64,000 bases of DNA, from positions 29,805,250-29,869,249 of the forward strand of contig NC_069369.1 of NCBI RefSeq assembly GCF_021730395.1, written 5' to 3'. A program made the position numbers and the translations under genes. Below the pieces are notes generated by a model. The model was not told the origin of the DNA. It saw only the letters and a program-made list of their open reading frames with translations, and did no database searches. Numbering within the stretch: the stretch's first letter is position 1; the number at the start of each line of letters is the position of its first letter. Below, piece by piece: positions 5,780 through 54,830 of the stretch. The stretch comes from Mercenaria mercenaria (lineage: Eukaryota).

Positions 5780-7325
5780 GTGATTACATGAAGACAAATA
5801 TTCTGACAAATTTTCATTAAGATTTGACCAAAAAACATGGCATCTTGAGTGTAAACAAGCATTTTCTTTGATTTGACCTAGTGACCTAGTTTTTTACCAC
5901 ACATGACCCAGATTCGAACTTGTCCAAGACTTCATGATAAAAAACACTGACCAAAATTTATGAAGATAAAATAAAAAATGTGCCCCCTATGGTGTAAACA
6001 AACTAATTCTTTTGTTTGACCTGGTGACCTAGTTTTTGACCCCACATGACACAGATAAAAATTCATACCATATTTCATGCAGACAAACATTCTGACCAAA
6101 TTTCATGTACATCAAATGAAAAAGCGCATTAACACACTTTTCCTTTGATCTGACTGGGTGACCTAGTTTTTGACCCTATATGACCCAGTTTCAGACTTGG
6201 CCTAGGAACCATCGCGATAAACATTCTGACCAAGTTTTATGAAGATAGGATCATAAATGGGGCCTCTAGGTTGTTAAAAAGCTTTTCTTTTGATTCGACC
6301 TGATCACCTAGTTTTTGACCCGACATGACGTAGTTTCGATCCAGGCCTAGAGATTATCAAGATAATTATTCTGTGCAGGTTTGTATCAAATCAAAGTATA
6401 AATGAAACCTCTACATGGCTAAAATGGCCAAAATAGAAAATTTTGTCCCTTTCAGGAGCAGTTATTCTAGAATCCATGATGGAATCTAGCCGGTCTTCGA
6501 AAGGAACCAATATCTTATTGTAACTTAAGTTGTGTGAAAGTGTGGTTAAAATCAAATGTAAAATGTCACTTCTATTGTGTTCACAAGGTAAAAAAAATAC
6601 CTTTAATAATAAATTTTGGCTCTTTTAGAGGTCAATTAGGGGCCATAACTCCGGAACCTAAGATTGGATCTGACAGATTCATCATGGAATCAAAGATTTA
6701 TTGTTGTTGAAGACATTTTGCAAGTTTGTATCAAACCATAAATGAAGTCTCTATATGGCTGCGAAAGCCAAAATAGCAAATTTTGGCTATTTAAGGGGCA
6801 ATAACTCTGGGACCCATGATGGGATCTGGCCAGTTTTCGAAAAGAACCAAGATATTATGCCAATACAAGTTGTATGCAAATTTGATTAAAGTGGGTTGCA
6901 AAATGTGGTCTCTATCGTGTTCACAAGCCAAAAATAGCAAAATTTGGCCCTTTAAGGGGCCATAACTCTGGAACCCATGATGGAATCTGGCCAGTTTTCG
7001 AAAGGAGCCGAGATATAATGCCAGTGCAAGTTGTATGTAAGTTTTATTAAAGTTGATTGCAAAATGTGGTCTCTATCGTGTTCACAAGCCAAAAATGGCA
7101 AATTTTGACTAAGGCGCCATAACTCTGGAACCCATGATGGGATCTGGCCAGTTTACGAAAGGAACCGAGATATTATGCCCATACAAGTTGTGTGCAAGTT
7201 TGATTAAAATCAAATACAAAATGTGATCTCTATCGTGTTCACAGGGAAATTGTGGATGGACGGACGTGCGGACGGACGTATACGATCACAAAAGCTCGCC
7301 CTGTCAATACGTGACAGGTGAGCCA
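5780..7325 (+). mobile_element. Helentron-like satDNA carrier: two adjacent ~170-bp satellite arrays, (GGACG)n microsatellite and terminal hairpin
   Basis: Array 1 (5780-6410) has units ...tgacctagtttttgacc...; array 2 (6410-7250) has units ...ggccataactctggaacccatgatggaatctggcc.... Then ggacggacgtgcggacggacg and the palindrome gctcgccctgtcaatacgtgacaggtgagc (7255-7320). Same architecture as 52760-54520. Confidence 0.55.
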
Positions 7326-7859
7326 AAAACAAGGATAAATATCACTCTTAACCTGTAAATGATATGAAAATTAAGTTGAAATGCTATTCTACTTATCCAG
7401 ACCCAGTACAGAAGCTATGTTCGATTGTGTTTGAGACCTAGGAAATGATGGACCTATTTGGTAAATACAAATTCCTTAGTGGATATTTGCTTGCTTAATA
7501 TGCTTGATGCGCTTAAAAAGGGATAATACATGGTATATTTCTCACTGGATACTTTATCTAGGTGTATTTTCGAGATAATAAAATGCAACAGCATTCTATT
7601 ATTTGGTGAAAATAACAACAATAGAGAGCAATAGAACTGTCACACTGATGAATTAGAGAAGGCAACCAATTTCACAGTTTACACCGAACCCTGCTTATGA
7701 TCGGTTTCATAATCTATACAAATCGGGATATGACCAGTTAAGGTCCGCCAAAGTTAGACTAACTTGTACCATAATCGGCAAGGGTCACTGTCTACAATAC
7801 TTAACAAAAATACAAACTTGTAGTCATTACTTAGTTAGTTATTTGGGCTCAGATAAAAA

Positions 7860-12320: not shown

Positions 12321-12397
12321 TAGTTTATTGGAGCTTTATTGGTTTATTAGTATTTTTCTACTACTTTGATATTTTCCATTTCATCATTCCATATTAT

Positions 12398-13440
12398 TGT
12401 TGTACCCCCCGACAACAAAGTTGTAAGTGGGGGTATACTGGTTTCAGGTTGTCTGTCTGTCCGTCTGTCTGTCTGTCCGTCTGGCCGTCTGTCCGTAGAC
12501 GCAATCTTGTGCGCACCATCTCTCCTTATCCCCTTGACAGAATTTAATGAAACTTCACACAAGTGATCAGTACCAACAGTAGTTGTGCATGGGGCATGTT
12601 AGGTTCTTTTAGAAAAAAAATTGCAGAGTTATGGGACTTTGTTGTTTTGTTACTATACTATATACATAGACACAATCTTGTGCGCACCATCTCTCCTCAT
12701 CCCCTTGACACAATTTAATGAAACTTCACACAAGTGATCAGTACCAACAGTAGTTGTGCATGGGGCATGTTAGGTTCTTTTAGAAAAAAAATTTGCAGAG
12801 TTATGGGACTTTGTTTTTTTTGTTACTATACTATATACATAGACACAATCTTGTGCGCACCATCTCTCCTCATCCTCTTGACACAATTTAATGAAACTTC
12901 ACACAAGTGATCAGTAACAACAGTAGTTGTGCATGGGGCATGTTAGGTTCTTTCAGAAAAAAAATTGCAGAGTTATGGGACTTTGTTTTTTGTTACTGTA
13001 CTATATACATAGACACAATCTTGTGCGCACCATCTGTCCTCATCCCCTTGACACAATTTAATGAAACTTCACACAAGTGATCAGTAACAACAGTAGTTGT
13101 GCATGGGGCATGTTAGGTTCTTTCAGCGACAAAAATTGCAGAGTTATGGGACTTTGTTTCTTGTTAACATACTATGTACATACAGTCTGCATATGCAATA
13201 TTGTGCGTGCCTAATCTACCAAACCCTTACACACAATTTAATGAAACTTCACACAAGTGATCAGTACCAACCCTAGTTGTGCATGGTGCATGTTACATTC
13301 TTTTAGATAAATATTCTGCATAGTTATGGGACTTTGTTTTTTGTTACTATACTGTATACATACAGTCTATATACATACAGTCCACACAATTATGCAATCT
13401 TGTGTGCGTCAAATTGCAATGTACTGTGTCAGTGCATGCG
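12398..13440 (-). mobile_element. Helentron-like satDNA carrier in reverse orientation: hairpin, (GTCT/GTCC)n, ~170-bp satellite array
   Basis: gtacccccc gacaacaaagttgtaagtgggggtatac hairpin, then (gtctgtcc)n, then about 5 units ...acacaatcttgtgcgcaccatctctcctcatccccttgacacaatttaatgaaacttcacacaagtgatcag.... The reverse complement is the same family as 52200-52760. Confidence 0.55.
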
Positions 13441-14301
13441 GGGGGTACATTCATCACCTTTAGTGATAGCTCTAGTTGTTTTTCATGTTTGATCATTTTT
13501 ACCTGAAGATTTTAGTGCATTTTTATTTTCTCTTTTCTGTTCATTTTGTTACTTTTTCAGGTCATTTTAGAGTCTTTTTCCTTTATTTTAATCTTCTCAT
13601 TAATGATATCCTCACTTGTCAATAACTCATATGTTGTCACTGATTTTCACAGTTTGTTTATTTGTTTAGATTCATCCAAACATTTCTTCAATTTCATTGT
13701 TAACATTTTGCGGTTGAGCTAAGGGCTTGACAAGGTTGCACCCATTTTAGTCAATTAAAGGTTGACAGAGTTATTCGCCACTCTCTATTAGACTAAAGAG
13801 CTGTTCTGGATAGCTAATATCAAGAACAGAACGTGTCAAAGAAAGGCAGCTGTCTTGCGACACCACTGGCTCAAGTATTTCAGTGTCAGGCAAACCTTCA
13901 ACAATATATGTGACATCAGCGCATCAGATTATAATCAGGGTCCAAATTTAGACTAGCATACAAGCTAAATGCTAGTGGAATTTGAGAATAGCTAGTGGAC
14001 TTGGAATGTACTAGCTTATTTCAGCTAGTCAATAATGAACCAAGCAAATGTCTTCAAAGCTTGAATAAAGTTTGTTCTGCAGGTATACATTTTTCTGCAT
14101 GAAAGGAATGTTATCATTTATGTTTATAAATGATATTTCATTGTTCAACAAAACCCTGATATCAATGCATGATTGCAGCTTGCATCAAGTTAACATGGAA
14201 GTATTTGACTTCAGCTTGTAAGTGGATAAAAATGGCACTAGCTATTGCTTAAGCTAATAGATTTTTTTTGTGACTGGCTACTTAAAGAGTTAAGGTTTAG
14301 C

Positions 14302-35198: not shown

Positions 35199-35326
35199 CT
35201 GAAATTAAAACAAGCCATGTCAAGCACATGGTATTAAAGTATCAACAAGCATCAAGAGAAAGGACAAGTGGTTTTCATACATACAGGATGAAGATTAATG
35301 ACTGAGTATTCACTGAAATAAAGTAC

Positions 35327-38429: not shown

Positions 38430-38559
38430 CTGTTGGAATGATAAAAAACACCAGTTATAACAGTGACAATAGAGAGGCTATGACTTTAAACTTGTACCAG
38501 TACGAGTATACATACACGTTACATTTCCTTTTTGTCTGATGAGTCAACAGTCGGAGTAG

Positions 38560-39070: not shown

Positions 39071-39075
39071 GCTTC

Positions 39076-39238: not shown

Positions 39239-39779
39239 TATTAACAAGGTTTTTCTAATATTATTTATTTATTTATTTGGGTTTTATGGCGCACCAACAA
39301 AGTAAAGGTTATATGGCGCCAAACAGGACTACAAATTTTGGTTCCACATCTTATTTACATCGAAATAAAAACATGAGGTATGGAATCAAAATTTGCATAC
39401 CTGCTGGAATCACAGAGTTACAGCAAAACCAAGTGTTAAGAACCTATAAGTCGCCTCTTACGATCATGCAAGGGTAAGGCAGTTGTTTCAGACCCAGATG
39501 ACCCATTACCTGTCTTGTTCAAGATTTTATTAAGGTAAATATTCTGACCAAGTTTCATGAAGATGGGGCAGATTTATGACCTGTAATTGTAAAATTGTTG
39601 ATGACACATACCAGACAAAGCAAAACTTACGACAATGGACAGGTGTTTCACAAAGCCAAATTTGTGCACTTTGTACTAAGGCATCAGAGCTTAAAATCTG
39701 TGTCAGATTCAAAAGAAATGCATGTTAAAATGTCATAAACACTTTTTAAACAAGAGCTGTCACCATAGGATGACACATG

Positions 39780-40345
39780 CCCCCGATGGCACTTTGAATG
39801 AATAGTTATGGCCGATGTTAGAGTTTAGGACCTTTGACCTACGGACCTGGGTCTTGCACGCGACAAGTCGTCTTACTGTGGTACACATTCATGCCAAGTT
39901 ATTTGAAAATCCATCCATGGATGACAAAGATATGGACCGGACACGCCCAACTATCATGAAAAATGACCTTTAACGTCTAAGTGTGACCTTGACCTTTGAG
40001 CTACGGACCTGGGTCTTGTGCGTGACACGTCGTCTTACTGTGGTACATATTCTTGCCAAGTTATTTGAAAATCCATCCATGGATGACAAAGATATGGACC
40101 GGACACGCCCAACTATCATGAAAAATGACCTTTAATGTCTAAGTGTGACCTTGACCTTTGAGCTACGGACCTGGGTCTTGCGCGCGACATGTCGTCTTAC
40201 TGTGGTACACATTCTTGCCAAGTTATTTGAAAATCCATCCATCGATGACAAAGATATGGACCGGACACAAAAACTGCGGACAGACTGACAGACTGTTCAA
40301 AAACTATATGCCTCCCTTCGGGGGCATAAAAAACCCAGCTGAGGT
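39780..40345 (+). mobile_element. Helentron-like satDNA carrier: 3 x ~183-bp units, (GACA/GACT)n and terminal hairpin
   Basis: Units gacctttgacctacggacctgggtcttgcacgcgacaagtcgtcttactgtggtacac.... Then ggacacaaaaactgcggacagactgacagactg and the hairpin atgcctccc ttcg ggggcat followed by aaaaaacc (40262-40345). Confidence 0.6.
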
Positions 40346-40375
40346 GTTTAGCTAGTCTGTAATAAATGCACTTAC

Positions 40376-40503
40376 ACTATAGCCTATATGGTTGATAGAG
40401 GCCATGTGTCCCTTCATACTGTACTTCACTTTACATGCACCATCTCCTGTGGACTCTTTTGTTGTTTCACCTGGTACATTGCCAATCTTTGATACATCCC
40501 AAA
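40376..40503 (-). CDS. NACHT-WD40 exon
   Basis: Acceptor aatgcttgcag|TT. (V)WDVSKIGNVPGETTKESTGDGACKVKYSMKGHMASINHIGYS. Donor AGT|GTAAGT. Completes ...SSDFNLKVWD from the previous exon. Confidence 0.8.
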
Positions 40504-41346
40504 CTGCAAGCATTTCAATTCTTCTAAGTACATGTATAGTACTGGTTTGCATTATTTCAATTTAATTCTTAGTCTTAAATTTTATTTGCCTGCTGTTCAC
40601 ATCATCACTCTCTGTGACATAACAAACAAAATATACGCCTGAAGGGTTATATCAGAGGAGGATGGGAGCAAAATTTAAAGAACTTCACAGTTGAAGCCCA
40701 AAGGACAGGAACAACAAAGGGAAGAAATTCTAAAAAAATTTCAAAGTCCACAGAAAACAAATCCTTTTCAGGTTCAGATATGTCAAAATACACCTAAAAA
40801 TTGAAGGTACATGTACCATCCATGTTGTACCCCAGAAAAATGGTCTTGGTTTTTCTTTTGGCTAATAATATAAAAGTTACAAAACAAGCTATTTTCATGC
40901 ATCAGCTCTATTCTGAAGATCTAACACCTCAGTGCAAGAAACTTTAGTGCAGAGTGGCAGTGTAACCTCCAGTCTAGAAATAGAGTGGATAAAGGGCGTC
41001 TAACTTCTGGGCAGGATATCCAAGTTGGGAAGTAAACCCTAGGCAAGATATCTGAATGGTGTGTGGTAGTCTAGCAGTAAAGATGTCACTCACTCAACTA
41101 GAAGATCAATGGTTCCAGTCTTGCTTGGGCCACAATGACATATCAACCATCAGAACCATTTTTTCTCCAGATAAAATGTATCTAATTACCTAGCAATGGT
41201 AATCTTATTTTGCAAATATACTGTCTCTGCAAATTCTGCTAACATAAAAGCTGCAGAATCTCTTCTTTCTACAGTAAGTGATTTGGAGCCAGGAACTTTT
41301 AACCAATAAACCACTGTTGAAGAATCCTGGACAAACATACACATAC

Positions 41347-41506
41347 CTTTGAGATTGAAATCACTGGAAGCTGTGATGATGAAGTCTGCAGTGTTTGACC
41401 ATCTACAATCTGTGACCCAGTCATCATGTGCATTATGTATGGTATGTAAGGGTGTAGGATTCTGCTCGTCAAATGTACAGGCAATAATGTCCCATATTCT
41501 CACACT
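41347..41506 (-). CDS. NACHT-WD40 exon (WD repeat)
   Basis: Acceptor ttgttctttgtacag|AGT. SVRIWDIIACTFDEQNPTPLHTIHNAHDDWVTDCRWSNTADFIITASSDFNLK. Donor AAAG|GTATGT. Confidence 0.85.
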
Positions 41507-42261
41507 CTGTACAAAGAACAATTGATAATTAGAAATACAGGTGTACGAAAATGTTTATTTCAAAGTAAGTTTGGATGTTTTGCTGAGACCCACCAACAAT
41601 TTAATTTATGAACTACGTTGGTGAGAACACATTTTTCCAATACATGTGTTATCATGGCCCTTGTCAGTGAACCTAGAGCAACTCAATGCCTGGCTCTGAT
41701 CTTATATATGTGGCTTATCTAAAGTTTACTGATAATATTTCAAACAAATATATTTAATGTAGACTGGATTATAGATATTTGTCACCAATTTGTAAACAAT
41801 GCCACCTGTGATTCCAAAATATCTGTAACAAGTCTATCAACCTGCATCATGTGTTTAAGCACTTACACTCAAATTTCAAAAACATGAACACTGATTATAA
41901 GACTGCTAAGAATAAAAATCTCTAAATATCTATCTGTAGTAACTAATGAAAAAGGTACACATGTACTTGGTATCTTGTCAGTCTATTTCCAAGACTTAAA
42001 AACTTTAATCTTAAATAACTTGTCAGTCTATTTCCAAGACTTAAAAACTTTAATCTTAAATAAAAACACAGATCATAAGGTTTCCTATAAAGAATAGTCT
42101 CTAGAAGATTTTTGTGTACTGTTTCATGCAAGCAAATAGTGCTGTATCTTTTCCAGTCCTCATGATAAGAGGCTCTAGATACATTTCTTTAATAGAGAAA
42201 TAATCCTTTTGGGCTAAAAACATTTTTATGTAGTATACGGTAATTAAATGCATTATAATTT

Positions 42262-42417
42262 GTATATCAAAGAGCAGGTTACAGAAGACTATGTTACAAT
42301 TTTTACATCAAAGAGCAGTTACAGTAGACTATGTTACAATTTTTACATCAAAGAGCAGTTACAGTAGACTATGTTACAATTTTTACATCAAAGAGCAGTT
42401 ACAATAGACTATGTTAC
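42262..42417. repeat. 40-bp minisatellite, about 3.7 units, starting at the first intron base of the NACHT-WD exon 42418-42535 donor
   Basis: Transcript-sense unit GTAACATAGTCTACTGTAACTGCTCTTTGATGTAAAAATT. The first unit is the donor itself (GAGATATG|GTAACATAG). Confidence 0.85.
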
Positions 42418-42535
42418 CATATCTCTGCTGCCTGTAGCAATCCTGTTTCCATTTTGATTGAAGGCACAACTTGTCACAGGTCCAGTGTGTGTTCCCATAA
42501 CACAAATTCTAGTTGGTACACTCTTCAAGATAGTC
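42418..42535 (-). CDS. NACHT-WD40 exon (WD repeat), paralogue of exon 43498-43652
   Basis: Acceptor ttggtttttgttacag|G. (R)TILKSVPTRICVMGTHTGPVTSCAFNQNGNRIATGSRDM. Donor ATG|GTAACA. Phase 2 to 0. Confidence 0.8.
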
Positions 42536-42879
42536 CTGTAACAAAAACCAAAAACGGAAGGTTTTTTTAACATTTTATTTAAGGATATGCAATTCATATA
42601 AAATTCATATGTTCTCTGGCCATTTCCCCCACATATTCTCCGTTTGGATCACTTCAAACCCTGGATAACTTGAATATAGCCTAAATTGAATGATGGACCA
42701 GTCCATTTTAGAAATTAAGCAGGATAAAGGTTAAAAGTTGAAATCCATGAATTTACATCCCCTTGAAATGTCCACTCAGGCTAAAGCCACAAAACTGCAT
42801 GGTCATAAATATAAAGGATTTGGCAGATTTTCTTGATTTGAACTTACATTCGAAAAATATTCCATTAAAACATTTTTGT

Positions 42880-43440
42880 ACACAGAAAATATGCTGTCTA
42901 CTCAGTAATTTTGGCAAACATCTGCATTTACATTTCATTTGAACAGTGTTTCAATATTTCATGGACATTCAACTGAGATGGCAGGAAAGTAATTTTAGCT
43001 TACTTATGTCTAACTGTATTTTTTTGAATTGATTTTTCATACACAGAACAGGTACAGTCCACTCATGTAATAGCAAAGTAATTCTGGTATAAATCTGCTC
43101 TCACTTTCCATCTGAACGGTGTTCTATGTTTGCCATGGTGAAATGAAACTACAGTAAAAGTTAAGTGCTGTTTCTTTTTGTTAGAGCGAAAATACCACAC
43201 ATGGTCGGATTTAGGTTGTAAATTTCCAGCATGGTTTCCTGCTGGCGTCTTTCAAAATTAGAGATCATGCCTGGGATTTAGTAAGAAATTTGAAACTTAA
43301 ATGGTATGCTTTTATATCATTTATGCTGAAAGAAAGTGTGAGGCATTAAACAAATGAGTTGGGACTTGTATGTGAACAATACTGGACAGAAAACTTAAGT
43401 GGTCGGAAACTGGTTGTGCCGGGATACTTCAATTGATTCT
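42880..43440 (-). pseudogene. Decayed tandem copies of the exon 43498-43652 segment (pseudo-exons)
   Basis: 43040-43140 reverse complement ...CCAGAATTACTTTGCTAT.ACATGAGTGGACTGTAC.TGTTCTGTGTATGA matches the exon 43498-43652 coding sequence with frameshifts. 42890-42960 reverse complement matches that exon's 3' end plus donor (...TTCAAATGAAATGTAAATGCAGATGTTTGCCAAAATTAC). Confidence 0.5.
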
Positions 43441-43497
43441 CATGCACATATTAACATGTGCAGTCTTTTTGTAATTTTGGCATACATCTGCACTTAC

Positions 43498-43652
43498 CTT
43501 TCATTTGAACTGTATTTCAATGGATTTTCATACACAGAACATGTACAGTCCACCGAAGTGATAGCAAAGTAATTCTGGCATATGTCTGCACTAAGAACTG
43601 GTTGTGTTAGAGTTGTGACTACACACGAATTCCTCAAGTTAACCTTCAGTAT
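43498..43652 (-). CDS. NACHT-WD40 exon (degenerate WD repeat), tandem paralogue of exon 42418-42535
   Basis: Acceptor ggttgttggttttttttacag|ATA. ILKVNLRNSCVVTTLTQPVLSADICQNYFAITSVDCTCSVYENPLKYSSNE. Donor AAAG|GTAAGT. Phase 0 to 2, which feeds the phase-2 start of the next exon. Confidence 0.65.
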
Positions 43653-43780
43653 CTGTAAAAAAAACCAACAACCAGTGTGCAAAACAAAGGGCACTTAAAA
43701 AAGCAAATCAGCCAGCGAATATTTTGATTTCAGCGCTTAACAACAAATTTACAGTCCCTTCAAACAAAATTAATGTACAA

Positions 43781-43984
43781 ACTCTAAGAAATTTCTATAA
43801 TGAACTTGTCCATCTTTCAATTTGGACAGTACTATAACTGTTAAAAGGGGTGCTTACCAAAAAGATACTGACTGAATGACGAACAGTGCAGATCATGATC
43901 AGACTGCACAGATGTGCAGGCTGATCGTGTTCTACATGGTCGCAAAGGCAGACTCAATCTTGTCCAGCATTATAAGGGGTTAAA
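43781..43984. mobile_element. MITE family B copy
   Basis: ...aaatttctataatgaacttgtccatctttcaatttggacagtactataactgttaaaaggggtgcttaccaaaaagatactgactgaatgacgaacagtgcagatcatgatcagactgcacagatgtgcaggctgatcgtgttctacatggtcgcaaaggcagactcaatcttgtccagcattataaggggttaa. Confidence 0.7.
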
Positions 43985-44041
43985 TGCATTTATTCTGAAT
44001 GTACTCCGTATTTTTCAAAAAAAGAAAGAAAATCATTGTAC

Positions 44042-44145
44042 CTTTGCTGAACAGTCATCTGACCCTGACAGTAAGAAAGCAGACGACATAAACTTCAGAC
44101 ATCTTACAGAAGCTGTATGCACCTGACTAGAATATAACTCAGTAC
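44042..44145 (-). CDS. NACHT-WD40 exon (WD repeat)
   Basis: Acceptor tgtgttattttgcag|GT. (G)TELYSSQVHTASVRCLKFMSSAFLLSGSDDCSAK. Donor AAG|GTACAA. Confidence 0.8.
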
Positions 44146-44399
44146 CTGCAAAATAACACATACAATCAGCACGAGATCTTTTATTCAAAACAAGTACAGG
44201 TAATTCAACCTTAAAATTCAGTGGTTAAGGATGACCCCAGGATCAATAATTTGTAGGTTTAACTAGTACCACTATGTGACATGAACTAAGCACTACATAG
44301 CTATACCATAGGATAACACAGGCTGCTTGTAAAACATGTATGACCACCCTGAATGCATGCTGGAGGTAAATAAGTGAGTAATATTGACAGCTATAACCC

Positions 44400-44950
44400 A
44401 AAATCTTCACCACTTATTGACTGAAAACTGTTTTCAGTCTTGAGGTCAATGTATATTGACCTTTGATCTACTGACTGCCAAACTAAAAGGGATCATGTTC
44501 TGACCCCAGGCTATCAATCTACAAAGTTTGACAGGATACTTCTGCTGTTATAGAACAAAACCAATTTTCAGTCTGAAGGTCAATGTGACCTTGACCTTTG
44601 ACACACTAATCCCAAAAACAATAGTGATCTCTTGATGACCACAGACAATCATCCTATGAAGTTCGATTATTGCGGGTCCAAGCCTTCTACAGTTATTGAG
44701 CAGAAACCTTTTTCAGTCCAAAGGTCAATGTAACCTTGACCTTGGATCTACTGACCCCCAAAACAATTGGGGCCATCTGATCACTACATACAATCATCAT
44801 ATGAAGTCTGACCAATGTTGGTCCGAGCCTTCTTCAGTTACTGAGCAGACACTGATTACATCTGAACTGAATGTAACTGTGACCTTGACCCCCAATATGT
44901 TTATCAAAGGCAATCATAGTATGGACATTGGCCATTTTTATAAGCTAAAG
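44400..44950. repeat. ~150-bp satellite array, about 3.5 units, no terminus recognised
   Basis: Units ...cagtct(t/g)(g/a)aggtcaatgt..gaccttgacctttga.c.actga.c.ccaaa.... Confidence 0.5.
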
Positions 44951-45274
44951 TGTTCTTGAGTTAAATTTTTTTATCAAAGTAACTATGACACTTCTGCTCT
45001 GACTTGCAATTAGCCTGACATTCTTTGTAAACCACAGACATTCTTTCTTCCAACATCACCTTAAGTGATGTAAAAAAAGACCTCCTACAAATATGCACCC
45101 ACAGTAATTACTCTGCTGAAATTGTGAATAGTGTGCCAGTGATTAGGGATCAACATTTTCGTAGGGTTTAAATCAACTACAATAAGGGTCAAATGACTTT
45201 AATCTATGGGCTGACAAATTAACCAGTCCTTAAGAATATACTAATTTTCTAAACATAACTTTTTGATCACTTAC

Positions 45275-45422
45275 CAGACAGTACATCGTGCACTTTGATT
45301 ACACCTGAATGGTATCCAATAGCAACCAAATCCTGTTGTGGTGATATAGCAATGGAAACTGCTGGGCCTAGTTGTTCTGTGCCAACAGTTATGATTGGTT
45401 TTCCAAGATGACCTGACCACAC
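45275..45422 (-). CDS. NACHT-WD40 exon
   Basis: Acceptor attatataacag|GTG. VWSGHLGKPIITVGTEQLGPAVSIAISPQQDLVAIGYHSGVIKVHDVLS. Donor TCTG|GTAAGT. Confidence 0.8.
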
Positions 45423-45863
45423 CTGTTATATAATAGTTGACATGAGCAGATCAAACAGTATATAATTAGAAAGGAATGGATGTTGTCATGTTGTCTCTAA
45501 AGTTTAAAATAAACAAAAATTTATTTATTTTGAAATGCTTTTATCATGTTAAATCCTTTTATTTTTAGTGACAAAAAAATGGCATAAGGGATTTCCCTTT
45601 TTAATAACTGACCATTATACACAGGTTTGACCTACCGGTTTACTGTAGGGGTGAACTGACTTTAATCTGTATTTAAATCAAAGCTTCATAAGCAACAATT
45701 TTTTTTTTCTTATTTCTTTTTAATACAACCTGCGTGCGAATCTACTCAAATTTTATTTCATGTCCTAGCAAGTCTGAACTTGGAATTTAAAAAGACTTAT
45801 AAGATGGACTGTACACATAGGTCACTGGTGAGTTGAATAATCGAACATGAAGTATGACCCTAC

Positions 45864-45962
45864 CTTGACCTTGTGATCATCGCTAACTGTAATGAGTTCC
45901 TTGCCAGTTGGTGAAAACGTCAACTTATTTATTGGTAACGCATGTCCCTCAATGTTACCAAC
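45864..45962 (-). CDS. NACHT-WD40 exon (WD repeat)
   Basis: Acceptor tatgaactttcag|GTT. VGNIEGHALPINKLTFSPTGKELITVSDDHKVK. Donor AAG|GTAGGG. Confidence 0.8.
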
Positions 45963-46168
45963 CTGAAAGTTCATAAGAATAGTACAATATAATAACACAA
46001 TGGACTTTTTTTTGGGTAAAATGGTAAATACACTTGAGATCTAATGGAATCAATTATCTGCCTTTGTCAGGGGGTAAATTTATAAGATTTTTCTTACAAA
46101 AATATCTAAAAGATAGGTCCATATTTAAAACTGTCTATATGTAAAGTAAATGAAGTAAATTTCAATAC

Positions 46169-46288
46169 TTGTGAGCCAGTATCTGCTGCCCATAGTTTAA
46201 CATCTCCGTCTAGAGCTGCTGAGGCAATATGACGTCCTGACGGTGAGTAGGCCACATCTCGTACTGACGACTGGTGACCTCGCAATAC
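46169..46288 (-). CDS. NACHT-WD40 exon (WD repeat)
   Basis: Acceptor ttgttgacattacag|GTA. VLRGHQSSVRDVAYSPSGRHIASAALDGDVKLWAADTGSQ. Donor CAA|GTATTG. Confidence 0.85.
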
Positions 46289-46779
46289 CTGTAATGTCAA
46301 CAATTAACTAATTATCTTTCAACAGCAAAACATACCATAACATGGAGAAGCTACAGCTATATGGATATTTAGTATTTCAACTTGATGTGTCTCCACAGGA
46401 CACTGGTGCCCCCCAATTCCTGTGACTGTATGCATATTTCTGACTAAGTCAATGGCCATAACTTGAATGGTCTGGCTGTGTGAAAATCCAATGAAAACAC
46501 CAGGTGTACATCCTCATATGCTGAATAATAATCCTGTAAGGTCTGATGACTCTAGGTCAAATACTTTTTAAGATATGTACAACACAAATTCCGATTAATG
46601 AAAATACAGACAAGGGCAACTCTAAGTGCAACCACAAAAATTTGGGGTGGGGGTGGGGGGCACATAAACATCCTAAAATACTTAGGTTTTCATCTGTCAG
46701 GTAAGTCAAATGGCAGAACATAACATTAACTAGAAATGTGTCCATGGGACACAGATGCCCCCACTACATGACAAAGGAC

Positions 46780-48262
46780 ACAGATCAACTTTGTGAAAAC
46801 AATATGTACAAAGTCAGGGGCCATAACTCCTACATAACTGAATGAATCTGGACGCGAAACCCCAGGTGCACAACTACACATGCTGACCAACATTCCTGTA
46901 AAGTTTTGTGACTCTACATCAAATACTTTTGGAGCTAGGCATGACACATTCTTGGAAGGACAAGGGCAAATACTTTTGGAGCTACGCGCGACACAACATT
47001 AAAATGACCAAGTTTTAACTAAGTCAGGGGCCATAACTCCTACATAACTGAATGAATCCGGACGCGAAACCCCAGGTGCACAACTGCACATACTGACCAA
47101 CATTCCTGTAAACTTTGGTGACTCTAGGTCAAATACTTTTGGAGCTACGCGCGACACAACATTAAAATGACCAAGTTTTAACTAAGTCAGGGGCCATAAC
47201 TCCTACATGACTGAATGAATCCGGACGCAAAACCCCAGGTGCACAACTGCACATGCTGACCAACATTCCTGTAAACTTTGGTGACTCTAGGTCAAATACT
47301 TTTGGAGCTACGCGCGACACAACATTAAAATGACCAATTTTTTACTAAATCAGGGGCCATAACTCCTACACGACTGAATGAATCTGGATGCAAAACCCCA
47401 GTTGCACAACTACACATGCTGACCAACATTCCTGTAAAGTTTTGTGACTCTACGTCAAATACTTTTGGAGCTAGGCATGACAAATTCTCGGAAGGACGGA
47501 CGGACAAGGGCAAATACTTTTGGAGCTACGCGCGACACAACATTAAAATGACCAAGTTTTAACTATTAAAGTCAGGGGCCATAACTCCTACACACCTGAA
47601 TGAATCCGGACGCGAAACCCCAGGTGCACAACTGCACATGCTGACCAACATTCCTGTAAACTTTGGTGACTCTAGGTCAAATACTTTTGGAGCTACACGC
47701 GACACAACATTAAAATGACCAATTTTTAACTAAGTCAGGGGCCATAACTCCTACACGACTGAATGAATCTGGACGCGAAACCCCAGATGCACAACTGCAC
47801 ATGCTGACCAACATTCCTCTAAACTTTGGTGACTCTAGGTCAAATACTTTTGGAGCTACGCGCGACACAACATTAAAATGACCAATTTTTTACTAAATCA
47901 GGGGCCATAACTCCTACACGACTGAATGAATCTGGATGCAAAACCCCAGGTGCACAACTACACATGCTGACCAACATTCCTGTAAAGTTTTGTGACTCTA
48001 CGTCAAATACTTTTGGAGCTAGGCGCGATACAACACTAAAATGACCAATTTTTACAAAGTCAGGGGCCATAACTCCTACAAGACTGAATGAATCTTGACG
48101 CGAAACCCCAGGTGCACAACTACACATGCTGACCAACATTCCTGTAAAGTTTTGTGACTCTACGTCAAATACTTTTGGAGCTAGGCGCGACACATTCTCG
48201 GAAGGACAGACGGATGGATGGACAGACGGACAATGGCAAATCTATATGCTCCCCCAAAGTGG
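46780..48262 (+). mobile_element. Helentron-like satDNA carrier: about 8 units (150-205 bp), (GGAC/GATG)n and terminal hairpin
   Basis: Units ...aagtcaggggccataactcctaca..actgaatgaatc.ggacgc.aaaccccaggtgcacaact.cacatgctgaccaacattcctgtaaa.ttt.gtgactcta.gtcaaatacttttggagcta.gcgcgacac.... Terminus ggaaggacagacggatggatggacagacggac... then hairpin atgctccccc aaagt gggggcat followed by aaaaaac (48190-48262). Confidence 0.6.
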
Positions 48263-48717
48263 GGGCATAAAAAACAAGAGGCCACAGGTTTGACTCCCTA
48301 ACCTGGCAAATATTCTCCGTGATGTTCTAACAGATTTCAATAATCAGAAATTAATGTTATTTAATGTTATAAAATCCTAAAAATAATTAGTACTTTGTTG
48401 CTGTTTTCTATGCTTTTACAGTTTCACATCTTTTTATGAAAAACACTTTCATCTATAAGGTCAGTGTAGTCACAAGCACTAGGTAAGAAGTGCATATTGG
48501 TAAAAGAACAGCTTTACAAATGACAGTTTCATTGTTCCCATCTACAAAGTTACTGACCAATTACAGCCTTGGCCCTAACATTAAGTACGATGGCTTTTAC
48601 CCAGCTTATTCTGCATGACCATTACAAGCTGGGAACGAATTAACCCTGTCTAGAAGCAGGGTAAGCTGAGACAAGCTCTTCAGTGAGAAAGGTATGGAAA
48701 GTTGCAGTTTATTGAGT

Positions 48718-49150
48718 TAAACGGTGGGCCAGTGGTCTAGTGGTAACACGCTTGACTTTCAATCCAGAGGTCCGGGATTCGAATCCCGGTCCAGGCACTG
48801 GAAATTTCTGAGATGCTCTTGAGTGTCTCCCACCTAACTAGAAGCCTGTATTGGTTCTTCCCAGGAAAGACGGCTTAGCGTGTTTCGATGCTATACACCG
48901 GGCACGTTAAAGAACCAGACTGTCTATTCGCAAAGAGCTAGGCTAAGTTCGCCGGACAGGCCTGTATTTACAAAGGATTTCTCTCTATCTGTTCTGGGGG
49001 CTTTATCTCACTCTGTCCCTCTGGTCAGATAGCTCTGTGTCATCCTCTAGTAGAGGATGAATTTTGCGCCCTGTGTGGCTGCGTTTGCTATATGTAAAGC
49101 GCCTTTGAACATGTTTATCATGAAAAGGGCACTATATAAATCTGGTATAA
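48718..49150 (+). mobile_element. tRNA-derived SINE (second family)
   Basis: tRNA-like head ggtgggccagtggtctagtggtaacacgcttgactttcaatccagaggtccgggattcgaatcccgg, a long body, and a tail ...tataataataaccc. Confidence 0.6.
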
Positions 49151-49254
49151 TAATAACCCTAAAATGTCAACTGAAAGTGTCCATAATAAACATGCATAAA
49201 ATAGTGGTTTGGGAATATGTCACTCATACTTCAAACATATGAGAGGCTACTTAC

Positions 49255-49360
49255 TGCTTTCTTTGTTTTATGGAAAATGTCCCAGATTTTGATTGTACTG
49301 TCCCACTGTCCTGACACTATCTTCTGACCTTCGGGATGGAAACTCACACAATTCACTGGG
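49255..49360 (-). CDS. NACHT-WD40 exon (WD repeat)
   Basis: Acceptor gtttctataattag|C. (S)PVNCVSFHPEGQKIVSGQWDSTIKIWDIFHKTKKA. Donor GCA|GTAAGT. Confidence 0.8.
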
Positions 49361-49649
49361 CTAATTATAGAAACATGGACTGTGTCAAAATAATGAAGGA
49401 AAACATGTAGCACCAGCAGCTGATTTATCTGTTCATAAAGTCATTGAAACGTTTTGGTGTTTCAAATCAAATAAAGCATTTGGCAAAAATTTAAGATAAA
49501 AGCAGTATATCTATAGGTAAAATACAAAATCTACCTTAAGTGCCAAAGTGTAGGACCCTGTTTTTGTAAAAAGTACCACAAATCAAGAAAAACTAGAGAT
49601 GCTTTTGAGAAAAGCGCATGTCTCCCACAACTGCCCCTATGGTTTAGAC

Positions 49650-50420
49650 GAGTAGATCCAATTAGATGGTCTGGACAAGTGGATCCAATCAGTAATTCAA
49701 GGGCCATAAATCAAAAGTGCCTGGGCGGATTTGGCTAGTTATCGAACTTGGCTAAGGTCTTATGGCCAAATACATTTTGTTTAAGTTTGGTGAAGATTGG
49801 ATGAGAAATGTTCGACTGAGAGAGCAGACAAGAGTAAAAAGGCCGATTTTTTTATAATTCAAGGGCCGTAACTCCAAAATGCCTAGACCGACTTAGCTAG
49901 TTATCGAACTTGGCCGAGGTCTCACGGTCAAACACATTTTGTTCAAGTTTGGTGAAGATTGGATGAGAAATGTTCGACTTAAGAGTGCGGACAAGAGTAA
50001 AAAGGAGGATTTTTCGGTAATTCAAGGGCCATAACTCCAAAATGCCTGGACCGATTTGGCTAGTTATCGAGCTTGTCTGAGGTCTCATGGTCAAACACAT
50101 TTTGTTCAAGTTTGGTGAAGATCGGATGAGAAATGTTCGACTTAAGAGTGCGGACAACATTAAAAAGGCTGATTTTTGGTAATTCAAGGGCCATAACTCC
50201 AATACGCCTGGACCGATTTGGCTAGGTATCGAACTTGGCCGAGGTCTTATGGTCAAACACATTTTGTTTAAGTTTGGTGAAAATCAGATGAGAAATGTTC
50301 AACTTAGAGTGCGGACAAGCTTTGTGACAGACAGACAGACACACAGACGGACAGACAGACAGACACACAGACTGGAGTAAATCAATATGTCTCCCACACC
50401 ACTATGTGGTGGGAGACATA
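49650..50420 (+). mobile_element. Helentron-like satDNA carrier: about 4.5 x ~150-bp units, (GACA)n and terminal hairpin
   Basis: Units ...aattcaagggcc(a/g)taactccaaaatgcctgg.ccga.ttggctagttatcgaacttggc..aggtct.a.ggtcaaacacattttgttcaagtttggtgaagat.ggatgagaaatgttcgact.aagag.gcggacaag.... Then gtgacagacagacagacacacagacggacagacagacagacacacagac and hairpin atgtctcccacaccactatgtggtgggagacat. Confidence 0.6.
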
Positions 50421-50499
50421 ATTTTATCAACAGAACATTAATTTTACTAATGTAGACATCCTCATTTCTGTTCTTATGTAAAACATCATTTCAGTAACA

Positions 50500-50990
50500 G
50501 CAGGTGTGCAAGAAATACATCTTAAAACTAGAGCTGCTTTTGAGAAAAGCGCATGTCTCCCACAACTGCCTAATCATCTGAAAAGTAATATAAGATTGGA
50601 TGAGAAATGTTCGAGCGTAAAGCCTACTCCCTATATATTCTTAATTCCAAATCAGACTTCCAGTGCCTTGATTATCAAAACCAACCCAATCAGACCTTTC
50701 AGTGCTCTGATACAACCCAATCAGACTTTCAGTGCTTTGATTATCAAAAAAACAATATTTCAAGGACCATAATTCTGAAGTGACTGGGCCGATTTGGCTA
50801 GTTATCAAACTTGGCTGAGGACTTATTGGCAAACACATTTTGTTAAAAGTTTGGTGAAGATCGGATGAGAAATGTTCGACTTAGGAGTGCGGACAAGATT
50901 TGTGACAGACGGAGGGATGGACGGACAGACAGACAGGAGTAAATCAATATGTCTCACACCACACAGTGGTGTGGGAGACATAACTGGTAA
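50500..50990 (+). mobile_element. Second, shorter copy of the same satDNA carrier with its own (GACN)n and hairpin terminus
   Basis: ...gtgacagacggagggatggacggacagacagacaggagtaaatcaatatgtctcacaccacacagtggtgtgggagacat (50880-50985). Confidence 0.55.
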
Positions 50991-51087
50991 TGTAATCTTT
51001 AAAGCCATAGATTAAACAAAAAGCAAAATTCATTAATTACATAAAAAAAAATTAAACCTGAAGGTATTTTTTTTCTTCTGTACTTAC

Positions 51088-51237
51088 GATCCAACTTTGA
51101 ATTCACATATCATACTGCCTTTCTTCATGTCCCAGATTTTAATTGTACAATCCCAGGATGCTGTTGCCAGAACATTTCCTGATTTATCTGAAGAACAGGA
51201 ATTCACCCGTCTCTGGTGACCTTTCAGGGAAAACAGT
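51088..51237 (-). CDS. NACHT-WD40 exon (WD repeat)
   Basis: Acceptor cataatttcag|A. (R)LFSLKGHQRRVNSCSSDKSGNVLATASWDCTIKIWDMKKGSMICEFKVG. Donor ATC|GTAAGT. Confidence 0.85.
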
Positions 51238-51599
51238 CTGAAATTATGATGAATATAAAACAGGCAAATTAGTATGGCATTATTGAAAAGGAAGCAGACA
51301 AGGAAATTATTCTTTCAAATATTTCTCTGTTGTTAATCAATTATCCATGCTGTCTGATGTTCAGAACAAAAACCTATTTTTGTTGCATTAAAACATTGCT
51401 CAGTAATATTCAGTTATGTAATATGGAAAGCATTTCAATGACTTCTGACTAGATCCACGCTGAGCTGACTTGCTCTCAGCCAGTAAATGACAACTTTCCC
51501 ACAAAAACAAAGGAAAGAAAAAAGGTGGTAGATGAATACCTGTCAACACCATGTCTACAGTCAAATGTTCTCAAACTAAACTGCATATTAAGTATAATT

Positions 51600-51827
51600 G
51601 AGCCGCGCCATGAGAAAACCAACATAGTGGCTTTGCGACCAGCATGGACCCAGACCAACCTGTGCAGTCTGGTCAGGATCCATGCTGTTCGCTTTCAAAC
51701 TCTATTGCAATTAGAGAAACTGTTAGCGAACAGTATGGATCCTGACCAGACTGCGCGGATGCGCAGGCGGGTCTGGATCCATGCTGGTCGAAAAGCCACT
51801 ATGTTGGTTTTCTCATGGTGTGGCTCA
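51600..51827. mobile_element. Palindromic MITE family A copy, 88 nt downstream of the exon 51916 donor
   Basis: gagccgcgccatgagaaaaccaacatagtggctttgcgaccagcatggacccagaccaacctgtgcagtctggtcaggatccatgctgttcgc...caggcgggtctggatccatgctggtcgaaaagccactatgttggttttctcatggtgtggctca. Confidence 0.8.
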
Positions 51828-51915
51828 TATAATTAAACCCAGAACTCTTCCAAAGGCAATCAGAGTATCTCCAAACTGATATACATGACAATGCAGTGAA
51901 AACATGTAAACATAC

Positions 51916-52040
51916 CTATGACCTTCACTGACGTCCCACACACTGACTGAAGCATCGGAAGATACACTACATAGTTTGTTACTACCAACAAAACATACAT
52001 CTGTTATTTTATCGGCATGTCCTCTGAAACTTCTTATCTC
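51916..52040 (-). CDS. NACHT-WD40 exon (WD repeat)
   Basis: Acceptor ctttattgtttacag|GAG. EIRSFRGHADKITDVCFVGSNKLCSVSSDASVSVWDVSEGH. Donor CATAG|GTATGT. Directly continues ...HLYDLSTGK from exon 54965-55060. Confidence 0.85.
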
Positions 52041-52199
52041 CTGTAAACAATAAAGTTGCAAAAATTAAAATACATTAACAACTTAAACTTTGTTACGATA
52101 AGAAACAGATGTGTAAATTCCTTGAAATTTTATATAAAAGATTTTCAAACGGGCTTTCAACAGAGCAAACAAAAAACAAAGTCCCATAACTATGCAGAA

Positions 52200-52760
52200 T
52201 ATTTATCTAAAAGAACGTAACATGCACCATGCACAACTAGGGTTGGTACTGATCACTTGTGTGAAGTTTCATTAAATTGTGTGCAAGGTTTCGGAAGATT
52301 AGGCGCGCACAAGATTGCATATGCAGACTGTATGTACATAGTATGTTAACAAAAAACAAAGTCCCATAACTCTGCAATTTTTGTTGTTGACAGAACCTAA
52401 CATGCCCTATGCACATCTAATGTTGTTAATGATCACTTGTGTGAAGTTTCATTAAATTGTGTCAAGGGGATGAGGAGAGATGGCGCGCACAAGATTGTGT
52501 CTATGTATATAGTAAAGTAACAAAAAACAAAGTCCCGTAACTGCAATTTTTTTTTCTGAAAGAACCTAACATGCCCCATGCACAACTACTGAATCAGATG
52601 TTACTGATCACCTGTGTGAAGTTTCATTAAACTGTGTCAAGGGGATGAGGAGAGATGGTGCGCACAAGATTGTGTCTACGGACAGACAGACGGACGGATG
52701 GACAGACAGACAACCTGAAACCGGTATAGCCCCCCATTACAACTTTGTTGTCGGGGGGTA
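52200..52760 (+). mobile_element. Helentron-like satDNA carrier (same family as 12398-13440, opposite orientation) with (GGAC/GACA)n and hairpin terminus
   Basis: Units ...cacttgtgtgaagtttcattaaattgtgtcaagggg.tgaggagagatgg.gcgcacaagattgtgtcta.g.... Then ggacagacagacggacggatggacagacagac and the hairpin ccccccattacaactttgttgtcgggggg. Confidence 0.6.
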
Positions 52761-54830
52761 CAATTACGACAGTTAACAGGTGTGTTAAGCATCAATCCCT
52801 TCTCACTAGTAGTTAATGCGATACAAGCTTACATACAAAAAGCTTAACCAGAAATTGCTAAGTCTAACAAGGGGTACAACTTCATAACAAGAGGACCATG
52901 ATGGTCCTGAATCGCTCACCTCTTTCCACATGACCCAGTTTTGAGTATGACGTCGTTTTTTCTATTATTTGACATAGTGACCTAGTTTTTGAGCTCATTT
53001 GACCCAGTTTTGAACTTGACCTAGATATTATCAAGATAAAAATTCTGACCAATTTTCATGAAGATCCATTGAAAAATATGGTCTCTAGAGGTCAAAAGAT
53101 TTTAATAATTTTAGACCTACTGACCTAGTTTTTGACCGCAGTTGACCCAGTTTCAAACCTGACCTAGATATCATCAAGATGAACATTCAGACCAAATTTC
53201 ATACAGATCCCATGAAAAGTATGGCCTCTAGAGAGGTCACAAGGTTTTTTTTATTATTTGACCTACTGACCTAGTTTTTTATGGAACGTGACCCAGATTC
53301 AAACTTGACCTAGATATCATCAAGGTGAACATTCTGACCAATTTTTATGGAGATCCATTTGCAAGTATGGTCTCTAGAGAGGTCACAAGGTTTTTCTATT
53401 TTTAGACCTAATGACCTAGTTTTTGACCGCACATGACCCTGTTTAGAACTTGACCTAGATATCATCAAGATGAACATTCAGATCAATTTTCATACAGATC
53501 CCATGAAAAATATGGCCTTTAGAGAGGTCACAAGGTTTTTCTATTATTTGACCTACTGACCTAGTTTTTGATGGCACCTGACCCACTTTCAAATCTGACC
53601 TAGATATCATCAAGATAAACATTCAGACCAATTTTCATACAGATCCCATGAAAAATATGGCCTCTAGAGAGGTCACAAGGTTTTTCTATTATTTGACCTA
53701 CTGACCTAGTTTTTGACTGCACGTGACCCACTTTCGAACTTGACCTAGATATCATCAAGGTGAACATTCTGACTAATTTTCATGAAGATCTCATGAAATA
53801 TATGGCCTCTAGAGAGGTCACAAGGTTTTTCTATTTTTAGACCTACTGACCTAGTTTTTGACCGCACATGATCCAGTTTCGAACTTGACCTAGATATCGT
53901 CAAGATGAACATTCAGACCAACTTTCATACAGATCCCATGAAAAATATGGCCTCTAGAGAGGTCACAAGGTTTTTCTATTATTTGACCTACTGACCTAGT
54001 TTTTGAAGGCACGTGACCCAGTTTCGAACTTGACCTAGATATTATCAAGATGAACAATCTGACCAATTTTCATGAAGATCTTGTGAAATATATGGCCTCT
54101 AGAGAGGTCACAAGGTTTTTCTATTTTTAGACCTACTGACCTAGTTTTTGAAGGCACGTGACCCAGTTTCAAACTTGACCTAGATATCATCAAGGTGAAC
54201 ATTCTGACCAAGTTTCATGAAGATCTTGTGAAATATATGGCCTCTAGAGAGGTCACAAGGTTTTTCTATTTTTAGACCTACTGACCTAGTTTTTGATGGC
54301 ACATGACCCAGTTTCGAACTTGACCTAGATATCATCAAGATGAACATTCTGACCAACTTTCATAAAGATCCCATGAAAAATGTGACCTCTAGAGTGGTCA
54401 CAAGCAAAAGTTTACGGACGGACGCACGGACGACGGACGACGGACACCGCGCGATCACAAAAGCTCACCTCGTCACTTTGTGACAGGTGAGCTAAAAAAT
54501 GGAAAATAAAGTTATGGAACCTGTGCATAGCAGGTCAGATTATCAGAGTAAAGAGGTGCATTAAGTGTTAATCTATTCTCCCTAGTAGTTACTGAGATAC
54601 AAAGTTACATATAAAAGCTTTGTCAGACATTGCAGTCAAAAAAGGAACATAACAAAGAAAACAGAATTATGGAGTCTGTACACTCCCTGTCAGATAATTA
54701 TAGTGAACAAGTGTGTGAAGTTTCAATCCATTCCTTCAAGTTGATACTGAAGGTAAAGCTTACATACAACATTAAACAAATCCAGACATTGAGGCTGATG
54801 AACAGGTGAGTGCAATAGCTCTACCTTGCC
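52760..54830 (+). mobile_element. Helentron-like satDNA carrier: about 9.5 x ~167-bp units, (GGACG)n and hairpin terminus at 54410-54520, followed by two ~140-bp flank units
   Basis: Units ...ttgacctactgacctagtttttga..gcac.tgacccagtttcgaacttgacctagatatcatcaagatgaacattc.gaccaa.tttcat..agatc.catgaaaaatatggcctctagagaggtcacaaggtttttctatt.... Terminus acggacggacgcacggacgacggacgacggac...gatcacaaaagctcacctcgtcactttgtgacaggtgagc. The flank units (54520-54830) also follow the terminus at 52760-52900. Confidence 0.6.

Follow-up and report, generated by a model that had tools for sequence, protein, structure and literature searches.

Non-autonomous elements of the Helentron type that carry satellite-like arrays (HINEs) have already been described in bivalves. 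In the Cg_HINE elements of C. gigas, the left flank is composed of (i) a 5' subterminal inverted repeat (subTIR); (ii) a complementary inverted repeat (IR); and (iii) a GTCY-type microsatellite, and the right flank is composed of a 3' subTIR and a palindrome (PMC7492417). The primary definition of Helentrons and HINEs agrees on this layout of the ends and places insertion at T-rich or TT sites (PMC4067079). Furthermore, empty-site analyses of equivalent elements have found no target-site duplication (TSD) (PMC7492417; PMC4067079). Older papers on the pearl and DTC84 elements adopted the opposite orientation and took the flanking AA as a TSD (PMC3879986), and the element MgE has been found in HSP70 introns (PMC3879986 and papers cited there). 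The stretch of DNA considered here, 64,000 nucleotides of contig NC_069369.1 (hereafter, the window), is a clean but ordinary case of such satellite-carrying HINEs: the kind of element is known, and the families themselves are probably new.

The elements E1 to E8, together with X1 and X2, are very probably about ten non-autonomous Helentron-type rolling-circle transposons (HINEs of the DINE-1/pearl/Cg_HINE type), belonging to some six families. An earlier reading of the window (the original prediction) had proposed non-autonomous Helentron-type carriers of satellite-like arrays, and the full HINE anatomy bears this out, with both ends recovered in seven of the eight elements it had listed. All the structural features that define HINEs (PMC4067079; PMC7492417) and can be tested in the window are present. 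In their true orientation, the complete copies begin with a T-run, followed by the 5' subTIR, a loop of 3-5 nt, the IR, a short spacer and a (GTCY)n microsatellite; then come 1 to 10 monomers of 145-180 bp, the 3' subTIR, a palindrome with a stem of 5-7 bp, the motif CTCT(A/T)GT and a T. These non-coding HINEs occupy together ~9.3 kb (14.5% of the window), and the two ends of seven copies could be fixed to the nucleotide. The elements are as follows (coordinates are positions in the whole window, and the strand is the true orientation in the Helentron convention):

E1, 5707..7329, minus strand: complete HINE with two consecutive arrays; 5' subTIR 7312-7323, IR 7294-7306, microsatellite 7259-7277; 161-bp array 6765-7243 (degenerate to ~6373) and 145-bp array 5787-6373; 3' subTIR 5735-5743, palindrome 5713-5727, TCTTGT 5707-5712.
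E2, 12397..13476, plus strand: complete HINE, the sole plus-strand one among E1-E8; 5' subTIR 12401-12416, IR 12420-12435, (GTCY)n 12450-12493; 171-bp array of five monomers, 12496-13362; 3' subTIR 13439-13449, palindrome 13453-13467, CTCTAGT 13470-13476.
E3, 39750..40333, minus strand: complete HINE; 5' subTIR 40315-40327, IR 40308-40316, microsatellite 40259-40293; 162-bp array of 2.7 monomers, 39829-40268; 3' subTIR 39777-39789, palindrome 39758-39775, CTCTTGT 39750-39756.
E4, 46729..48274, minus strand: complete HINE; 5' subTIR 48258-48268, IR 48246-48255, microsatellite 48205-48231; 163-bp array, whose blocks 47507-48194 and 46963-47473 are split by a duplicate of the spacer-microsatellite junction (47479-47505); 3' subTIR 46755-46765, palindrome 46737-46753, TTTCTAGT 46729-46736.
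E9, 48274..48305, minus strand: lone motif resembling a 3' end, with the palindrome CAGGTT...AACCTG followed by CTCTTGT.
E5, 49592..50422, minus strand: complete HINE; 5' subTIR 50406-50419, IR 50387-50402, microsatellite 50326-50372; 162-bp array of 3.9 monomers, 49692-50319; 3' subTIR 49618-49631, palindrome 49601-49615, CTCTAGT 49592-49598.
E6, 50527..50984, minus strand: member of the E5 family with about one monomer and ~140 bp of unrelated interior; 5' subTIR 50966-50981, IR 50949-50962, microsatellite 50892-50934; 3' subTIR 50553-50564, palindrome 50536-50550, CTCTAGT 50527-50533.
E7, 52168..52763, minus strand: member of the E2 family, 3'-truncated, with neither 3' subTIR nor palindrome; 5' subTIR 52747-52762, IR 52730-52743, microsatellite 52681-52711; 180-bp array of 2.9 monomers, 52168-52678.
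E8, 52887..54498, minus strand: complete HINE, both boundaries confirmed by two copies from outside the window (L001 and L002); 5' subTIR 54480-54492, IR 54463-54476, microsatellite 54417-54445; 145-bp array of ten monomers, 52957-54404; 3' subTIR 52914-52921, palindrome 52893-52907, TCTTGT 52887-52892.
X1, 2835..3339, plus strand: HINE-like element overlooked by the original prediction, lacking a microsatellite; 5' subTIR CTCATCTGATGTTTTT 2837-2852; 175-bp array of 1.9 monomers, 2914-3253; 3' copy of the subTIR 3295-3310, CTCATGT 3333-3339.
X2, ~25020..25488, plus strand: HINE also overlooked, its left boundary uncertain; 152-bp array 25084-25401; palindrome with a 9-bp stem 25452-25479, TTTCTAGT 25481-25488.

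The microsatellite, the hairpin and the A-rich tail had been taken for a Helitron-like 3' terminus, and this is the point at which the earlier interpretation has to be turned around. In the Helentron convention they constitute a 5' end seen from the other strand: reverse-complementing (GACR)n gives (GTCY)n, and a second module was consequently predicted beyond each array. Such a module was found for seven of the eight listed elements. In the earlier direction of reading, it appears as an A-rich flank, AC(A/T)AGAG, a short palindrome and the outer hairpin arm in inverted form; likewise, the A-run next to the hairpin is the T-rich target or terminal T-run, read on the other strand. The orientation first adopted is that of the older pearl and DTC84 papers (PMC3879986), and the true 3' ends, lying beyond the arrays, were overlooked. 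The layout of array, microsatellite, hairpin and A-run that had been described does exist at all eight sites, but E6 follows about one monomer rather than an array.

In E1-E6 and E8, the two subTIRs measure 9-14 nt and match at 9/9 to 13/14 positions. The 5' subTIR begins 0-2 nt inside the 5' boundary, and the 3' copy stops a constant 26-28 nt short of the 3' boundary; in X1, the pair matches at 15/16 positions and the 3' copy stops 29 nt short. The subTIR of E1 (9 nt) and that of E8 (8-nt perfect core) fall below the published length range of about 11-15 bp, and E7 and X2 are incomplete for the pair. Inside each family, the 5' subTIR, the IR and the 3' subTIR agree three ways, and they differ across families, a pattern consistent with selection for pairing and not for sequence. 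An IR complementary to the 5' subTIR is present in all eight listed elements, separated from it by a loop of 3-5 nt, and the pairing of the two forms the strong 5' hairpin. When folded as single-stranded DNA, these hairpins reach -6.5 to -13.2 kcal/mol. None of 200 shuffled sequences folded equally well in the case of five elements, and 2-6 of 200 did so for E2, E3 and E4. The hairpins previously noticed are hence real, but their stems are not always perfect, with bulges or mismatches in E1, E2, E3, E4 and E7. The eight termini fall into four hairpin sequence families, exactly as had been claimed.

Inverted repeats at both ends, and TT flanking every copy, are also what would be expected of cut-and-paste MITEs (miniature inverted-repeat transposable elements), with terminal inverted repeats (TIRs), a 2-bp AA/TT TSD and a DDE transposase. 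This was the view of pearl and DTC84 before 2014, and the older literature did report an AA TSD (PMC3879986). Nevertheless, this explanation is very improbable for the window. The repeats are asymmetric, the 5' copy being terminal and the 3' copy being set back from the end by an unvarying 26-28 nt; beyond the 3' copy come a palindrome of its own and the conserved CTCT[A/T]GT, which is a Helentron signature and not a TIR pair; and the published empty sites of equivalent elements show no TSD (PMC7492417; PMC4067079). The bivalve elements pearl (CvA/CvE/CvG), DTC84 and MgE share with those in the window a left flank, core repeats, (ACGG/ACAG)n, a right flank and a terminal AA (PMC3879986), a likeness drawn by layout; unlike the latter, they were published as tandem-repeat-containing MITEs with an AA TSD (PMC3879986).

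Evidence for mobility of the elements comes from copies of one family at different places. Three same-family pairs occur in the window (E2/E7, E5/E6 and E1/E8), and in each the ends are shared and the flanks unrelated. E5 and E6 agree at 98% over 47 bp of their 3' ends, and E2 and E7 stand 40 kb apart in opposite orientation. Outside the window, two copies were found with a pattern built from the 5' end of E1/E8: (i) L001, a metagenome contig; and (ii) L002, a 7.5-kb contig poor in open reading frames (ORFs) and binned in a metagenome-assembled genome of Leptonemataceae, where it is evidently host contamination in a bacterial bin. Inward from T-run|AGCTCACC, L001 is nearly identical to E8, with a handful of substitutions and a microsatellite 7 nt shorter, and its upstream flank is unrelated to that of E8. 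L002 comprises a 5' end, 13.3 monomers, ~1.5 kb of extra interior and an E8-type 3' end 92% identical to that of E8, with homology breaking at CTCTTGT|T. As independent insertions, L001 and L002 confirm both boundaries of the E8 family: homology stops exactly at the two inferred ends. A scan of viral contigs with the E2/E7 terminus returned 0 matches.

These copies also bear on the possibility that the window holds locally generated satellite arrays and segmental duplications instead of transposed units. Tight clustering (five elements in 7.8 kb), a 115-bp direct repeat flanking E8 and the duplication inside E4 all speak for it. Against it stand E2 and E7, of one family yet 40 kb apart and inverted, and L001 and L002, located in unrelated contigs of other samples, with unrelated flanks and identical, sharp ends. 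Local duplication is, on this evidence, an extremely improbable origin, and transposition of Helentron-type units is retained.

The extra ~1.5 kb of L002 lies at 2022-3564 of that contig, between array and 3' end, and includes near 2455 a T-run|hairpin motif resembling a 5' end; the insert may represent either a HINE nested in this copy or sequence that was captured.

The outermost sequences distinguish the elements from canonical Helitrons. At the 3' side, palindromes with stems of 5-9 bp are found in E1-E6, E8 and X2, with position kept and sequence differing by family, and they lie 0-2 nt before the terminal CTCT[A/T]GT. This tail is common to families with unrelated subTIRs, at constant spacing, which suggests a shared cleavage context. 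The 3' ends read CTAG in five copies (E2, E4, E5, E6 and X2) and CTTG in four (E1, E3, E8 and E9), as well as in L002. After the T-run, the 5' ends start with ATG, AGC, GGC or TGT. Complete copies all carry a T or T-run directly 5' and a T directly 3', and the same holds for L001 and L002. Read directly at the eight sites, the (GACA/GACG/GGAC)n microsatellites extend over 20-50 bp, followed by a spacer of 10-25 nt before the hairpin. A loose scan for the GAC period recovered the eight sites, the copy inside E4 (47479-47505) and a few matches unlike them, against a background of ~1.4 matches expected from first-order Markov simulations.

The original prediction had also used the label Helitron-N, implying that the hairpin on the microsatellite side is the 3' terminator hairpin of a canonical element. 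A hairpin near one end with a short tail beyond would agree with this, and so would the five copies that end CTAG|T on the other strand, fitting CTRR plus T; the presumed rolling-circle mode and the hairpin near the 3' end are common to both kinds of element, and so, going by the published analyses of equivalent elements, would be the absence of a TSD. Nonetheless, the canonical features fail whichever way round the elements are read. The 5' TC is missing; a T and not an A flanks the 5' end, so that the target is T|T instead of A|T; the CTTG ends do not fit CTRR; the palindrome is 0-2 nt from the terminal motif, and not ~11 nt from the end; and subTIRs, which are foreign to canonical Helitrons, are present. 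Because the 5' ends are not TC, the target is not A|T and half of the 3' ends are not CTRR, the Helitron-N label was rejected, and it is highly unlikely that these elements are canonical Helitrons.

Against their being Helentrons of the non-autonomous kind, several observations have to be weighed. Individual 3' palindromes are no more stable than shuffled sequences; the microsatellite is missing from X1 and the 3' end from E7, and X2 has a degenerate 5' end. No ORF for a Rep/helicase, and hence no autonomous partner with matching termini, came up among the listed window ORFs of at least 70 aa. The original prediction had suggested looking for 5' ends and for TT or insertion-site signatures at empty sites: the far ends were found in seven of eight elements and the copies are flanked by T...T, but a search for empty sites with joined flanks in the window, L001 and L002 found none, and hence mobility is inferred from the sharp homology boundaries of independent copies. 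No flanking repeat longer than TT occurs at any copy, and TT is present on both sides of every one, so that insertion into TT without duplication and duplication of TT are here indistinguishable. To our knowledge, the biochemical roles ascribed to the subTIRs and hairpins of Helentrons are putative.

Among described systems, Cg_HINE (Vojvoda Zeljko et al., 2020, PMC7492417) is the closest. Both have (i) identical module order and T-rich or TT insertion; (ii) central repeats of 140-180 bp, usually 2-5 in Cg_HINE; (iii) elements with two arrays, E1 resembling Cg_HINE_10_13 and 11_12; and (iv) intronic copies, with the array orientation fixed relative to the flanks. They differ in that X1 lacks a microsatellite and in density, HINEs occupying 14.5% of the window versus 0.85% of the C. 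gigas assembly (CL1-13), a figure that for a single window is no genome estimate. The window subTIR strings do not occur in the portion of the PMC7492417 supplement text that was available, and a full-text literature search with six diagnostic strings gave only chance matches, to short ones. The HINEs in the window are probably of families other than those of Cg_HINE, likely from another species; as far as the accessible part of that source goes, the C. gigas CL1 monomer looks different.

The DINE-1 elements and HINEs of Drosophila, mite and mosquito (Thomas et al., 2014, PMC4067079) likewise combine subTIRs of 12-15 bp with an IR placed a few nucleotides away from the 5' copy; they too possess a microsatellite and central repeats, a stem-loop near the 3' end and TT insertion with boundary T-runs, and they are non-coding. 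In the mite families, the 3' subTIR lies ~38-60 nt from the terminus (PMC4067079), compared to 26-28 nt here (29 in X1), and a further difference from DINE-1/HINEs is that the CTCT[A/T]GT tail spans window families with unrelated subTIRs.

Regarding the less regular entries of the list, E4 carries its internal junction (47479-47505) without a hairpin, with a higher-order period of 385 bp in Tandem Repeats Finder (TRF), and thus the microsatellite-array junction can be duplicated inside an element. For E7, a 3' end was sought in the interval from the array's edge (52168) to the acceptor of the exon (~52046); nothing like the 3' module of E2 was found there, and E7 is 3'-truncated. X2 has a clear 3' end and a degenerate 5' end, with an imperfect hairpin near 25026-25050, for which no matching 3' subTIR was found, and an eroded microsatellite. 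E9 is separated from the 5' end of E4 by a T-run only; a body and a 5' end were looked for and none was found. Either it is what remains of another element or the match arose by chance, as about three such motifs are expected per window.

Two further arrays were considered as HINEs and are not claimed: X3 (44539-44849), which has a hairpin and an A-run at ~45060-45085 but no convincing far-side module, and X4 (61802-62126), which has no HINE ends.

In contrast to the original prediction, the satellites carried by the elements are not all unrelated. TRF detected many arrays of 145-180 bp in the window, and three array families were recognised: (i) 5787-6373 and 52957-54404; (ii) 12496-13362 and 52168-52678; and (iii) 39829-40268 and 25084-25401, the array of X2 being related to the E3 satellite in inverted orientation. 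The arrays of E1b, E5 and E8 show weaker yet significant mutual similarity, the array of E4 is linked to E1b and more weakly to E5, and a GGCCATAACTC box is common to E1b, E4 and E5. The occurrence of one satellite family in both orientations was correctly foreseen, as the inverted pair 12400-13368 / 52763-52168 (E2/E7) is 82-94% identical. Within families, the orientation of the array relative to the ends is constant, in agreement with the published pattern. Monomer number varies within a family (3.9 in E5 versus about one in E6; five in E2 versus 2.9 in E7; ten in E8 versus 13.3 in L002), and the length of the microsatellite also differs among copies of one family.

Other tandem repeats in the window are shorter in period. 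A 39-bp minisatellite at 17713-20600, ~2.7 kb long and showing higher-order periods of 96 and 135 bp, starts within the 3' end of an exon encoding a MYND finger. The exon ends in ...KMIAMVKQVGID, the repeat unit encodes MVKQVGIDTALIA, and ORFs of 170-275 aa run through the array, which could represent either the expansion of a coding repeat or growth within the intron from a seed at the edge of the exon. A 30-bp minisatellite extends over more than 3 kb (25608-28837) in two blocks 90% alike, starting ~120 bp downstream of the 3' end of X2.

Helitrons and Helentrons move by nicking, peeling off and inserting a single strand. By analogy, an autonomous Helentron elsewhere in the genome would supply the Rep/helicase(-endonuclease); the 5' end would be nicked and one strand peeled off. 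On the displaced strand, the start and the stop of the unit would be marked by the terminal hairpins together with subTIR pairing, and the excised strand would then integrate at a T-rich (TT) site. The internal array would travel as passive cargo and might later grow or shrink through slippage or unequal exchange.

The close packing of the elements deserves separate consideration. E5 and E6 are 105 bp apart, E7 and E8 are 123 bp apart, and E9 abuts E4. One tentative and rather doubtful idea is that the elements did not simply accumulate passively: the T-runs at HINE boundaries would be preferred landing sites for further HINEs of the same polarity, giving rise to head-to-tail chains, and the transposase would recognise how the strand pairs and its geometry instead of the subTIR sequence. 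If this were true, the loss of internal ends in such chains would lead to composites that hold several arrays, as E1 and Cg_HINE_10_13 do, and a single autonomous Helentron could serve many HINE families.

The spacer between E7 and E8 (52765-52886) and a segment ~35 bp past the 5' end of E8 (54533-54650) are direct repeats of ~115 bp, 76% similar, so that the order in true orientation is R'-E8-R-E7. They could reflect a local duplication involving elements, or a small dispersed repeat acting as a favoured target.

Six of the elements (E3-E8), and not seven termini as previously stated, are located in introns of a gene encoding a TEP1-like protein:

Host gene, TEP1-like NACHT and WD40-propeller protein, 32677..63993, minus strand: runs past the right edge of the window.
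Exon candidates at 59-64 kb, minus strand: 63889-63993, 63026-63283 (partly open), 62357-62506, 60509-60757, 59973-60140 and 59066-59320.
Exon candidates at 42-52 kb, minus strand: ~51880-52046, ~49255-49365, and ~46.2, 45.9, 45.3, 44.1 and 42.5 kb.
Exon candidates at 32-42 kb, minus strand: ~41.35-41.52, 40.36-40.51, 38.3, 37.6, 37.0, 36.1, 35.4, 35.1 and 32.8 kb.

A P-loop NACHT region is encoded by these exons, as are numerous WD40 blades, with matches to TEP1 beta-propeller families. In two protein searches, no protein of the same species turned up; the best matches reached 55-69% identity, and the best named one belongs to the bivalve Solemya velum (60%); judging from these protein matches, a bivalve or molluscan origin of the DNA is likely. 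The orthologous locus of a different organism (L003) is an intron-less gene copy with no HINE-like arrays. All six intronic elements lie in the sense orientation of the gene. T-runs of at least 4 nt are found to 58% on the sense strand, a bias that explains the six of six only partly; the resulting p of ~0.04 is too weak to claim selection or targeting. The 5' end of E3 is ~25 bp from the splice donor of the WD40 exon 40361-40510, and the truncated end of E7 lies upstream of the exon at ~52046, ~120 bp from its splice acceptor. E1 and E2 are outside this gene, near a fragment of a long interspersed element (LINE) reverse transcriptase and upstream of plus-strand MYND-finger exons.

Several other repeats share the window. 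The LINE RVT_1 fragment (7868-8388, plus strand) and a pogo/Tigger-type DDE_1 transposase fragment (15913-16170, minus strand) are both unrelated to the HINEs. A palindromic MITE-like family of ~230 bp is present at 1-227, 17063-17293, 22049-22214, 33752-34003, 51590-51836 and 56218-56388; its copies align mutually in both orientations at 79-95% identity, and ARAGORN reports a pseudo-tRNA at 56221-56315. A second dispersed family, of ~200 bp, is found at 32437-32664, 35775-35935, 39087-39216, 43789-43986, 59313-59418, 62555-62746 and 63369-63592, with 77-89% identity in both orientations and every copy in the TEP1-like gene region. Finally, a tRNA-like sequence at 48726-48793 (plus strand; Rfam RF00005, 31.2 bits versus a threshold of 29 bits) lies within a stretch resembling a short interspersed element (SINE), in the intron between E4 and the exon 49255-49365.

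The window adds no new principle; its value is a coordinate-level dissection of about ten elements. For annotation, the arrays are best masked as correctly oriented HINEs, and not as satellites or Helitron-N, and the TEP1-like gene model needs checking near elements situated 25-120 bp from splice sites. As regards the biology, the window illustrates known ideas: (i) arrays travel as transposon cargo and come to reside in introns; (ii) copy number shifts after insertion; and (iii) composite elements and internal microsatellite duplications arise. In this way, HINE cargo disperses short satellite-like arrays into euchromatin, here mainly into the introns of one TEP1-like gene.

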